NCBI RefSeq assembly: GCF_003334355.1
Contig: NZ_QOWP01000007.1
DNA: 64,000 nt
Origin: Escherichia coli
GTDB taxonomy: Bacteria; Pseudomonadota; Gammaproteobacteria; Enterobacterales; Enterobacteriaceae
Strand: one strand, 5' to 3'
Below, piece by piece: positions 13,630 to 52,633 of the stretch (position 1 is its first letter; every line of letters starts with the position of its first letter). The position numbers and the translations under genes are program-made. The notes below the pieces were generated by a model. That model ran no database searches, had not been told where the DNA came from, and saw only the letters and a list, made by a program, of their open reading frames with translations.

Positions 13630-13736
13630 AACAGTCACCAGAGAGTAGAGATGATTCTCAATCATAGTAGCAAATACAGTACTTTACACGTTAAATGCTA
13701 TGCTTAAAGAAGTTATCTTCGCGTAAGGAGCTTATG

Positions 13737-27166: not shown

Positions 27167-27430
27167 GCCAGCTCAAACCAACGTTAATAGCCATCCTAAA
27201 ATAGACGAAGCGCCAGCCAATTCCCGCAGCGCGTCTAGCGTCATCAGGATTATAAGTACCCAAATAAACGGATTCATTTTGCTGTGTGTCATTTATTACT
27301 GATGCGCAGTTATTCTACTGCTTTGTAAGTAGTAAAATAGTTAACCCGATCAAGACTACTATTATTGGTAGCTAAATTTCCCTTAAGTCACAATACGTTA
27401 TTATCAACGCTGTAATTTATTCAGCGTTTG

Positions 27431-27444
27431 TACATATCGTTACA
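27431..27444. promoter_or_regulatory. RstA box TACATATCGTTACA in the asr promoter
   Basis: Exact match to the RstA consensus TACATNTNGTTACA about 105 bp upstream of the asr start; asr is a known RstA/PhoB-dependent acid-shock gene. Confidence 0.6.
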
Positions 27445-27547
27445 CGCTGAAACCAACCACTCACGGAAGTCTGCCATTCCCAGGGATATAGTTATTTCAA
27501 CGGCCCCGCAGTGGGGTTAAATGAAAAAACAAATTGAGGGTATGACA

Positions 27548-27856
27548 ATGAAAAAAGTATTAGCTCTGGTTGTTGCCGCTGCTATGGGTCTGTCTTCTGC
27601 CGCCTTTGCTGCAGAGACTACGACCACACCTGCTCCGACTGCGACGACCACCAAAGCAGCGCCGGCGAAAACTACACATCATAAAAAACAGCATAAAGCA
27701 GCACCTGCCCAGAAAGCGCAGGCGGCTAAAAAGCATCATAAAAATACGAAAGCTGAACAGAAAGCCCCTGAACAAAAAGCGCAGGCAGCGAAGAAACACG
27801 CCAAGAAACACAGCCATCAGCAACCGGCAAAACCTGCTGCACAACCCGCAGCGTAA
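27548..27856 (+). CDS. asr: Acid shock protein Asr (periplasmic, Lys/His/Ala-rich)
   Basis: 102 aa from [21 protein letters not shown]; low-complexity [10 protein letters not shown] repeats. Confidence 0.88.
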
Positions 27857-27948
27857 GTTTTCAACAGTAATGCTGGCGCGCCCCCTCGCGCCTGAAAATT
27901 ACGGTGCTAAGCGGGTAACGTTTAGCACCGCCTTTAGCGGAGGGTAGT

Positions 27949-28032
27949 ATGGTGGGCCGTTATCGCTTTGAGTTCATTCTGATCATCCTTATTTTATGCG
28001 CACTGATTGCCGCCCGTTTTTATCTTTCCTGA
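27949..28032 (+). CDS. ydgU: Small membrane protein YdgU (27 aa)
   Basis: MVGRYRFEFILIILILCALIAARFYLS; not in the ORF track because of its size. Confidence 0.6.
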   Translation: MVGRYRFEFILIILILCALIAARFYLS

Positions 28033-28131
28033 TTGTAGTTATCTGATTTTACTCCCACTTTCATCCCGTCCCGTCTATAGTATTTATGAGGGTTTGCTTT
28101 TAATAATCATAATTACCCACCAGAGTGTGAT

Positions 28132-28953
28132 ATGCGTACAACCATTGCTGTAGTGTTGGGTGCAATTAGTTTGACGTCTGCTTTTGTGTTTGCAGATAAA
28201 CCAGACGTTGCCAGATCGGCAAACGATGAGGTCAGCACCCTGTTTTTTGGTCATGATGATCGTGTGCCAGTGAATGACACGACCCAATCACCGTGGGATG
28301 CGGTTGGGCAACTGGAAACGGCCAGCGGCAATTTATGTACGGCGACGCTGATTGCACCCAATCTGGCATTAACGGCAGGACACTGTTTATTGACACCTCC
28401 AAAGGGTAAAGCCGATAAAGCAGTGGCGCTGCGTTTTGTGTCAAATAAAGGTCTTTGGCGCTATGAGATCCACGACATAGAAGGCCGCGTTGATCCGACA
28501 CTGGGAAAGCGGTTAAAAGCAGATGGGGATGGTTGGATTGTACCTCCCGCAGCCGCGCCGTGGGACTTCGGATTGATTGTGCTACGTAATCCCCCTTCTG
28601 GCATTACGCCGTTGCCGTTATTTGAGGGAGATAAAGCCGCGCTTACCGCCGCATTAAAAGCGGCAGGTCGTAAAGTGACTCAGGCAGGCTACCCTGAAGA
28701 TCATCTCGATACGTTGTACAGTCATCAAAACTGTGAAGTGACTGGCTGGGCGCAAACGTCGGTGATGTCACATCAGTGCGATACCTTGCCGGGTGACAGC
28801 GGTTCGCCTCTGATGTTGCATACCGATGACGGCTGGCAATTAATTGGGGTGCAAAGTTCGGCTCCTGCCGCGAAAGATCGCTGGCGTGCCGATAACCGGG
28901 CCATTTCTGTTACCGGTTTTCGCGACAAGCTGGATCAACTGTCGCAAAAATAA
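28132..28953 (+). CDS. ydgD: Secreted trypsin-like serine peptidase YdgD
   Basis: 273 aa with signal peptide; TAGHC (His) and GDSGSPL (Ser) motifs. Confidence 0.88.
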
Positions 28954-38202: not shown

Positions 38203-38257
38203 CTTTTTACCTTAACACTTCCATAACAAGTCATCAGTAGAATACCTGATGAAAACT

Positions 38258-38274
38258 TGTTTAGAAACGATTGA
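38258..38274. promoter_or_regulatory. Candidate PhoP box (TGTTTA-N5-GATTGA) upstream of rstA
   Basis: One strong and one weak half-site of (T/G)GTTTA-N5-(T/G)GTTTA; rstA is a known PhoPQ-activated gene. Confidence 0.3.
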
Positions 38275-38330
38275 TAGTAAGTAAAAACAGCGCGGTGTAT
38301 TGTGACGTTTTTATATCTACCGTGAATGTT

Positions 38331-39050
38331 ATGAACACTATCGTATTTGTGGAAGATGATGCGGAAGTCGGTTCACTGATTGCCGCGTACCTGGCAAAAC
38401 ATGATATGCAGGTTACCGTAGAGCCGCGCGGCGACCAGGCCGAAGAAACCATTTTGCGAGAAAATCCGGATTTGGTGTTACTCGACATCATGCTACCAGG
38501 CAAGGACGGCATGACCATTTGTCGTGATTTACGCGCAAAGTGGTCTGGACCGATTGTTCTTCTAACCTCTCTCGATAGCGATATGAACCACATCCTGGCA
38601 CTGGAAATGGGTGCCTGCGACTATATTCTCAAAACGACGCCCCCTGCTGTTTTGCTAGCGCGTTTACGTTTGCATTTGCGTCAGAATGAGCAAGCCACAC
38701 TGACCAAAGGTCTTCAGGAAACGTCTCTGACTCCCTACAAAGCCCTGCATTTCGGCACGTTGACCATCGATCCCATCAACCGCGTAGTCACCCTGGCTAA
38801 CACTGAAATCTCGCTCTCGACAGCTGATTTCGAATTATTGTGGGAATTAGCTACCCATGCCGGGCAAATCATGGACCGCGATGCATTGCTGAAAAATTTA
38901 CGCGGCGTCAGTTATGACGGACTGGATCGTAGCGTGGACGTGGCTATTTCGCGGTTAAGAAAAAAACTACTCGATAACGCCGCAGAACCTTATCGCATTA
39001 AAACCGTGCGTAACAAAGGCTATCTTTTTGCGCCTCATGCATGGGAATAA
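38331..39050 (+). CDS. rstA: OmpR-family response regulator RstA
   Basis: 239 aa from MNTIVFVEDDAEVGSLIAAYLAKHDMQV; the track ORF is extended upstream to 38271. Confidence 0.9.
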   Translation: MNTIVFVEDDAEVGSLIAAYLAKHDMQVTVEPRGDQAEETILRENPDLVLLDIMLPGKDGMTICRDLRAKWSGPIVLLTSLDSDMNHILALEMGACDYILKTTPPAVLLARLRLHLRQNEQATLTKGLQETSLTPYKALHFGTLTIDPINRVVTLANTEISLSTADFELLWELATHAGQIMDRDALLKNLRGVSYDGLDRSVDVAISRLRKKLLDNAAEPYRIKTVRNKGYLFAPHAWE

Positions 39051-39053
39051 GCG

Positions 39054-40355
39054 ATGAAAAAATTGTTTATCCAGTTTTACCTGTTATTGTTTGTCTGCTT
39101 CCTTGTGATGTCTCTGCTGGTTGGGCTGGTGTACAAATTTACCGCCGAACGCGCGGGCAAACAGTCGCTGGATGATTTGATGAACAGTTCGCTGTATCTG
39201 ATGCGCAGCGAATTGCGTGAGATCCCCCCACACGACTGGGGTAAGACGCTGAAAGAGATGGATTTAAATCTCTCTTTCGATCTGCGTGTCGAGCCACTGA
39301 GTAAATACCATCTTGATGATATTTCCATGCACCGACTGCGTGGCGGCGAAATTGTCGCCCTGGACGATCAGTACACGTTTTTGCAGCGTATCCCGCGCAG
39401 CCACTACGTGCTGGCAGTTGGTCCTGTTCCTTATCTTTATTACCTCCATCAAATGCGATTGCTGGATATCGCCCTGATCGCTTTTATTGCTATTTCCCTC
39501 GCCTTTCCGGTGTTTATCTGGATGCGTCCGCACTGGCAGGATATGTTAAAACTGGAAGCAGCGGCGCAACGATTTGGCGATGGGCATCTCAATGAACGTA
39601 TCCACTTTGATGAGGGTTCGAGCTTTGAACGACTTGGCGTCGCATTTAACCAGATGGCGGACAATATCAACGCCTTAATTGCCAGCAAAAAACAGCTTAT
39701 TGACGGTATCGCTCACGAACTGCGAACACCGTTAGTGCGCCTGCGTTATCGACTGGAGATGAGCGATAACCTGAGCGCCGCCGAATCCCAGGCGTTGAAT
39801 CGTGATATCAGTCAACTTGAAGCTTTAATTGAAGAGCTGCTGACTTATGCCCGACTCGATCGCCCACAAAACGAGCTTCATCTTAGCGAACCAGACCTGC
39901 CGTTGTGGCTGTCAACGCATCTGGCAGATATTCAGGCAGTAACGCCCGATAAAACGGTACGGATAAAAACGCTCATGCAAGGCCATTATGCGGCGTTGGA
40001 TATGCGCTTAATGGAGCGCGTGCTGGATAATTTGCTCAATAACGCCCTGCGCTACTGCCATTCAACGGTTGAAACCAGCCTGCTACTGTCGGGGAATAAA
40101 GCGACATTAATTGTTGAGGATGATGGCTCAGGGATTGCCCCAGAAAACCGCGAACATATCTTTGAACCTTTTGTTCGCCTCGATCCCAGCCGGGGTCGCT
40201 CAACCGGCGGCTGCGGGCTGGGACTGGCAATTGTCCACTCTATAGCACTGGCAATGGGCGGTACGGTTAATTGTGGCACCAGCGAACTGGGTGGTGCCCG
40301 CTTCTCGTTTAGCTGGCCGTTATGGCATAACATCCCGCAATTTACCTCTGCTTGA
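39054..40355 (+). CDS. rstB: Sensor histidine kinase RstB
   Basis: 433 aa; H-box GIAHELRTPL and ATP-binding G-boxes. Confidence 0.9.
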   Translation: MKKLFIQFYLLLFVCFLVMSLLVGLVYKFTAERAGKQSLDDLMNSSLYLMRSELREIPPHDWGKTLKEMDLNLSFDLRVEPLSKYHLDDISMHRLRGGEIVALDDQYTFLQRIPRSHYVLAVGPVPYLYYLHQMRLLDIALIAFIAISLAFPVFIWMRPHWQDMLKLEAAAQRFGDGHLNERIHFDEGSSFERLGVAFNQMADNINALIASKKQLIDGIAHELRTPLVRLRYRLEMSDNLSAAESQALNRDISQLEALIEELLTYARLDRPQNELHLSEPDLPLWLSTHLADIQAVTPDKTVRIKTLMQGHYAALDMRLMERVLDNLLNNALRYCHSTVETSLLLSGNKATLIVEDDGSGIAPENREHIFEPFVRLDPSRGRSTGGCGLGLAIVHSIALAMGGTVNCGTSELGGARFSFSWPLWHNIPQFTSA

Positions 40356-52294: not shown

Positions 52295-52633
52295 TTAACC
52301 AATTCTGTGTTGCACACAGTTATCTGTGAGAAACCCATGGAAGAGAAATGGAAATAAAAAGAACTGACACCGCGATCAAAAAACCAAAAACTGCAATACC
52401 CACAGCGTGATATAGATCGCATTAATCTTTAAAACAGCGTTGACAGAAGCCATAAAATAAGCAACCGAACGTTCGTTCGAGCGTATTGGGAACGATAAAC
52501 TCTCATGACATATGGCTACAGTGAATATTTTGGGGGGAATTCTCCGAAGCCGGGAAGGATAATTTTTGCACAGAGAAATTACGATATGAAACGCGGGCAC
52601 AGTTATCACCAGCCCGCCGAAAAAGAGAGAGAA

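Follow-up and report, generated by a model that had tools for sequence, protein, structure and literature searches.

The 14-bp RstA box TACATATCGTTACA at 27431-27444 (+ strand) of the window, the 64,000-nucleotide stretch of Escherichia coli DNA that was analysed, is almost certainly the operator used by phosphorylated RstA to activate the E. coli asr-samT operon, and no finding contradicts this reading. The RstA site in the asr promoter is real, functional and already known, and the relay in which it takes part is textbook material. The basis of this explanation is published and covers binding of RstA, dependence of binding on the box, activation in vitro, rstA dependence in vivo, control by PhoP and feedback by SamT; the present analysis contributes the sequence, the geometry of the promoter, the deep conservation of the box and the orthology of the PhoP box. 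The value of the case is that of a positive control, in that a validated operator and its regulator were recovered from raw sequence in one window. The comparative additions are that conservation of the box reaches well outside Escherichia, TACAWWNNGTTACA being its only constrained part, that the PhoP box is restricted, and that the stretch from -54 to -30 of the asr promoter is conserved as well.

The locus and the binding of RstA at asr

The window corresponds to the E. coli chromosome from ynfL-ynfM-asr-samT through rstAB-tus. Of 5426 complete E. coli genomes, 5423 match a query of 801 bp around the RstA box, often with 100% identity, and the matching genomes annotate the region as ynfM, a small KPN_01571-family ORF and asr. 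When the annotated neighbourhood is compared with that of a K-12 derivative, the gene order is equal: ynfL, ynfM, asr, ydgU/samT, ydgD, mdtIJ, tqsA, pntBA and ydgH, followed by ydgI, folM, ydgC, rstA, rstB, tus and fumC. The target gene asr (27548-27856, + strand; ORF and annotation) codes for a periplasmic acid-shock protein of 102 aa, annotated in the matching genomes as 'acid resistance repetitive basic protein Asr'. It is followed by samT (ydgU; 27949-28032, + strand), which begins 92 nt past the asr stop codon with its own Shine-Dalgarno sequence GGAGGG and was recognized from its sequence and as an annotated small CDS. Its product is the 27-aa membrane peptide MVGRYRFEFILIILILCALIAARFYLS, annotated as 'stationary phase-induced protein' in the K-12 derivative. 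Recently, samT was reported to be co-transcribed with asr and its product to inhibit RstB, a negative feedback at acid pH (PMC13425233, 2026). The regulator genes are rstA (38331-39050, + strand; ORF, annotation and tblastn), coding for an OmpR/PhoB-family response regulator of 239 aa, and rstB (39054-40355, + strand; ORF and annotation), coding for a sensor histidine kinase. They are located 10.9 kb downstream of the RstA box on the same strand, which agrees with the distance of about 11 kb given in a sequence-only reading of the window. A small ORF on the other side of the box (27173-27292, - strand), annotated as 'KPN_01571 family protein' or 'hypothetical protein' in E. coli, is divergent from asr; its start is 255 bp from the asr ATG, so that the intergenic region is common to both.

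The RstA box is a direct repeat of two TACA half-sites whose starts are 10 bp apart, and 104 bp separate it from the asr start codon downstream. The definition of RstA boxes goes back to genomic SELEX and to footprints at asr and csgD (Ogasawara et al. 2007, cited after PMC4117788 and PMC6824119), and by the account of these later papers the E. coli asr box of the original work (J Bacteriol 189:4791) is the very same site, in sequence, gene and organism, with no difference. Its place in the promoter can be read from a secondary source (PMC9026648), from which the footprint limits and the +1 were taken and mapped onto the window. In the coordinates quoted there, the RstA box extends from -77 to -55 and the PhoB box from -39 to -22, and a 9-bp spacer precedes the -10, with A at -17 and -13 in the wild type. 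Back-calculation from these coordinates puts the probable asr-samT transcription start (+1) at 27499 (+ strand), because this is the sole fit of the published spacer to the window. On the same scale and strand, the 23-bp RstA region of the literature, CAGCGTTTGTACATATCGTTACA, would occupy 27422-27444 (-77 to -55), the published PhoB (Pho) box CTCACGGAAGTCTGCCAT would occupy 27460-27477 (-39 to -22), overlapping the -35 position, and the spacer TCCCAGGGA would occupy 27478-27486. The -10 hexamer, TATAGT at 27487-27492 (+ strand), deduced from the same source together with the sequence, is a good one and is conserved across orthologs. With these published coordinates, the 14-bp box falls at -68 to -55 of the sigma-70 promoter with its centre at -61.5, and its assignment to the asr promoter in the sequence-only reading is thereby borne out.

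At 17 bp upstream of the -10, the hexamer CGGAAG is a poor -35, which leaves the promoter without a usable one, so that asr needs an activator. A generic sigma-70 promoter scan over 27250-28150 found no promoter; because there is no -35, this is expected of an activator-dependent promoter and is not evidence against one.

Binding of RstA to this promoter has been observed with several methods. In EMSA, the asr promoter is shifted by RstA, and no binding is left once the box has been deleted or scrambled (PMC11135836). In EHEC, Pasr is also shifted by RstA in EMSA, and asr is down in an rstA mutant (PMC6824119). DRaCALA showed binding of the purified regulator to Pasr, and activation of asr transcription has been reported in a purified in vitro system with sigma-70 RNA polymerase holoenzyme (PMC13425233). 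Moreover, Pasr reporters at pH 5 are dependent on rstAB and require Asp52 of RstA (PMC13425233). The RstA EMSA and mutant reporter assays that the sequence-only reading put forward as tests are therefore already in the literature, with positive outcomes. Expression of asr is still high in rstB mutants at pH 5 (PMC13425233), which indicates that RstB is not the sole phosphodonor, and PhoBR has been reported as a second input to asr beside RstBA (PMC9026648, among others). With an extra phosphodonor and a PhoBR input, the linear cascade is a simplification.

At the structural scale, the DNA-binding domain of Klebsiella pneumoniae RstA has been solved on asr RstA-box DNA (PDB 4NHJ; PMC4117788), with tandem head-to-tail winged-helix domains on TACA-type half-sites. 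The DNA-binding domain of the RstA encoded in the window is close to that of K. pneumoniae, and the stretch DRSVDVAISRLRKKL is identical. The K. pneumoniae asr box is an imperfect TACA/TACT repeat (PMC4117788), whereas the E. coli box has two perfect TACA half-sites. In E. coli, two RstA DNA-binding domains very probably bind head to tail on TACA half-sites 10 bp apart, at a promoter that would be silent without an activator because it has a good -10 but no usable -35. RstA centred at -61.5 would then recruit RNA polymerase from upstream, and the position of the box suggests that it may do so via the alpha C-terminal domain. In the same family of regulators, OmpR (at ompF and ompC) and PhoB (at Pho boxes) use direct repeats with a periodicity of about 10 bp, upstream of promoters that lack a -35. 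The asr promoter resembles this tandem 10-bp repeat type of activation, but the mapped RstA site ends at -55 and does not abut the -35.

The closest relative of the asr site is the RstA box of csgD, TACATTTAGTTACA in MG1655, which has the 14-bp architecture and the regulator in common with it. The original RstA report is said to have described csgD as repressed. Up-regulation of csgD is found in other work (PMC4117788; PMC11135836), so that the direction of control is disputed there, whereas RstA is a plain activator at asr. The csgD site is shared with OmpR (PMC13425233), and it could be proposed that the GTTACA-type repeat of asr is also read by OmpR, the site then integrating EnvZ-OmpR and RstBA. 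This would fit with the csgD and asr sites differing at only 2 of 14 positions, but asr was the RstA-specific control in the study in which OmpR was the activator of omrB (PMC13425233), and no report of OmpR control of asr was found in the literature consulted; a double reading of the site is very improbable.

Before RstA was considered, PhoB acting through the Pho box that overlaps the -35 was the model for asr; as a rival, it would make PhoB the main driver, with the TACA repeat secondary or irrelevant. Dual control by PhoBR and RstBA is indeed described in the literature, including the secondary source that places the PhoB box at -39 to -22 (PMC9026648), and 27460-27477 (CTCACGGAAGTCTGCCAT) is roughly like the Pho-box consensus, the second half being better in E. 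albertii (CTGTCAT). However, Pasr reporters need rstAB at pH 5, and RstA binds Pasr with activation reported in vitro (PMC13425233); binding of RstA is lost when its box is deleted or scrambled (PMC11135836). Outside Escherichia, the Pho box also keeps just its first half, whereas the RstA box is found in 51 of 51 other asr loci. PhoB as the main driver is thus very hard to sustain, and it is best seen as an additional low-phosphate input, possibly a lineage-specific one, at a promoter that is activated by RstA.

Motif statistics and conservation of the box

The sequence-only reading had presented 27431-27444 as an exact RstA box. Its sequence and coordinates are correct, and its exactness holds by construction: the published consensus TACATNTNGTTACA is the intersection of the asr and csgD sites, which makes an exact match at asr circular. 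The two sites have 12 of 14 bases in common and are unlike at just the two N positions of the consensus. Within the 64-kb window, 27431-27444 is the sole match to TACATNTNGTTACA with zero mismatches (0.02 expected from shuffles), and matches with at most two mismatches are at chance frequency (5 vs 4.1 expected). The csgD site alone, used as an independent probe with at most two mismatches, hits the window once (0.29 expected), a result that 24 of 100 shuffles equal. Weaker RstA-box matches (at most two mismatches) at 52507, 56864, 59402 and 63000 were set aside as occurring at chance frequency, as were relaxed TACA-N6-TACA matches at 13675 and 32502, which are likewise at chance frequency in the window. 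Neither the RstA box nor the PhoP box upstream of rstA is statistically remarkable as a plain consensus match. Since motif statistics are insufficient, the functional case for both boxes rests on conservation and on published experiments.

Conservation was assessed in 51 asr loci from other Enterobacterales, obtained by scanning for the Asr protein with one genome per species. These loci come from Escherichia, Citrobacter, Salmonella, Klebsiella, Raoultella, Enterobacter, Leclercia, Cedecea, Pluralibacter, Siccibacter, Shimwellia, Buttiauxella, Serratia, Rahnella, Rouxiella, Hafnia and others. A box of the TACA-N6-TACA type is present in all 51, located 112-122 bp upstream of the ATG; 49 follow TAC[AT]-N6-TAC[AT], and the remaining two carry one-base variants (TACATTCGGTTACC and TACGTCCCGTTACA). 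When conservation is projected on the window, there is none upstream of about 27429, and its onset at the RstA box is abrupt. The consensus derived from the orthologs is TACAWWNNGTTACA, which means that position 7, a T in the published consensus, is unconserved. Within E. coli, 5289 of the 5423 matching records have a 121-bp promoter segment with an identity of at least 99%, and the segment of the window is 100% identical to that of many E. coli genomes, the K-12 derivative included. Altogether, the comparison argues that the RstA box is under selection in orthologous asr promoters. That the match is a chance AT-rich short motif, intergenic and functionless, as the circular consensus and the csgD probe (one match vs 0.29 expected, equalled in 24% of shuffles) would allow, is next to inconceivable, given that the box is kept at a fixed distance in 51 of 51 orthologous promoters next to an unconserved upstream flank, and it is refuted by the published deletion and scrambling of the box (PMC11135836); further binding data also speak against it (PMC6824119; PMC13425233).

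On either side of the RstA box, at 27420-27427 and 27444-27451, are the arms of a perfect 8-bp inverted repeat, TTCAGCGT / ACGCTGAA, with a third copy, AACGCTG, at 27406-27412. It was considered as a separate operator and rejected because the upstream arms are unconserved outside E. coli.

Downstream of the start site, a predicted stem-loop GGCCCCGCAGUGGGGUU (27502-27518, + strand; predicted fold -9 kcal/mol) corresponds to +4 to +20 of the asr mRNA. Most of the 51 other asr loci have it almost unchanged, and it may be a 5'-end stabiliser of the asr mRNA. An Rfam scan of 27200-28200 (E up to 1) matched no family, and the fold of the 62-nt asr leader is no better than that of shuffles (z = -0.22).

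Some variation at the locus was also observed. Two asr paralogs, located on separate contigs, occur in Raoultella terrigena and in two Enterobacter strains, each copy with an RstA-type box (L012/L013, L037/L038 and L041/L042); the second half-site is ATTACA, not GTTACA, in one copy of each Enterobacter pair, and GTTACC in one Raoultella copy. In four complete E. coli genomes, an IS1 is found between ynfM and asr. In strain 26561, the one in which the junctions were examined, the 768-bp IS1 (L054, 531-1299) lies directly upstream of the RstA box, and its 9-bp target duplication CAGCGTTTG (window 27422-27430) keeps both the -77 to -55 region and the box intact.

The conserved block between the box and the -35 position

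Conservation continues beyond the box. In the comparison of 52 sequences (the window and the 51 loci), a promoter-proximal block of 25 bp, CGCTGAAACCAACCACTCACGGAAG at 27445-27469 (+ strand; -54 to -30), is as conserved as the RstA box itself. The block continues the 10-bp phase of the box, which can be written as TGTACAtacc / GTTACAcgcc / GAtACCaatc / ACTCACggaa, the last two units being marked by GAwACC and ACTCAC. The published PhoB box overlaps just the last 10 bp of the block. The 14-bp RstA box alone does not explain 27445-27469, and no assignment of the block to a factor was found. A conserved region from -70 to -30 in enterobacterial asr promoters was reportedly described by Seputiene et al. 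in 2004; in that case, the block has probably been noticed before.

It is conceivable, though rather unlikely, that the RstA operator at asr is longer than the published 14-bp box. The block may be a second, low-affinity site for an RstA dimer, placing the activator beside RNA polymerase, or it may be the site of a partner factor that gives strict acid specificity. If true, either reading would explain why asr is the sole promoter that is strongly and directly activated by RstA, and also why other 'RstA boxes', for example that of omrB, fail in vitro.

PhoP control of rstAB

The second regulatory site in the window is the PhoP box of the rstAB promoter, TGTTTAGAAACGATTGA (TGTTTA-GAAAC-GATTGA; 38258-38274, + strand). 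It had been proposed as a candidate from the sequence, and it proves to be the ortholog of the PhoP box footprinted with DNase at Salmonella rstA. Compared with (T/G)GTTTA-N5-(T/G)GTTTA, its first half-site is perfect and its second (GATTGA) agrees at 4 of 6 positions, and PhoP-box matches with at most two mismatches are at chance level in the window (21 vs 16.6 expected). In Salmonella, PhoP-P footprints a single box in direct orientation, tCGTTTAGAAAAGATTTAt, with 23 nt between it and the downstream -10 (TATGTT) of rstA, and activation needs the alpha C-terminal domain and the correct orientation of the box (PMC3335776). The productive distances between PhoP box and -10 in Salmonella promoters are 12 or 23 nt. 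The footprinted sequence is present as TCGTTTAGAAAAGATTTAT at the aligned position of the S. enterica locus compared here (L023), and the window aligns to this Salmonella promoter with tTGTTTAGAAACGATTGAt; the predicted rstAB -10, TATTGT at 38298-38303 (+ strand), which was placed by the Salmonella alignment, is again 23 nt downstream of the box.

The rstAB promoter of the window therefore matches the 'architecture III' promoter of Salmonella rstA (PMC3335776), with orthologous boxes (CGTTTAGAAAAGATTTA in Salmonella vs TGTTTAGAAACGATTGA in the window) and 23 nt to the -10 in both. The Salmonella box reads CGTTTA-GAAAA-GATTTA, and E. coli has the weaker second half-site of the two (GATTGA vs GATTTA). 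A third half-site-like hexamer, TGATGA at 38247-38252, lies 11 bp upstream of the first half in E. coli but not in Salmonella. An alternative PhoP register with two mismatches, 38247-38263, was rejected as it is without a Salmonella counterpart, and the alignment thus points to 38258-38274 as the right register. A literature search found no publication that gives the rstA PhoP box of E. coli or Shigella letter by letter, so orthology to the Salmonella footprint was used. Other data from these species support the same control: phospho-PhoP shifts the rstAB promoter of Shigella in EMSA, rstA is at 0.07 of wild type in a Shigella phoPQ mutant (a 14-fold drop), and transcription of E. coli rstAB is PhoP-dependent.

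In the published relay, low Mg2+ or acid acting on PhoQ leads to more RstA and RstB, PhoP switching on rstAB via 38258-38274; in Salmonella, the 23-nt arrangement requires the alpha C-terminal domain. Acid pH then brings about phosphorylation of RstA and expression of asr-samT, after which SamT damps RstB. The sequence-only reading had outlined such a cascade from PhoPQ through RstBA to asr and had described it as contained within the window. Its order matches the published relay, but its containment does not hold, as phoPQ is absent. A tblastn search with RstA against the window returned rstA itself only and no other OmpR-family regulator, which means that phoP is absent and that the relay is represented in the window by its last two tiers alone.

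Among the promoters sampled, the rstA PhoP box is confined to Escherichia and Salmonella. It was not seen in the rstA promoters of Serratia, Hafnia and Rouxiella that lie near asr, in line with the rewiring of rstA that has been reported between Salmonella and Yersinia. The linkage of the two genes has a different spread: rstA is at most 10 kb from asr in E. coli and in S. enterica arizonae (downstream), and also in Serratia, Hafnia and Rouxiella (4-6 kb upstream), the linked loci being L008, L023, L027, L039, L048 and L051. Linkage of this regulator to its main target is maintained across Enterobacterales.
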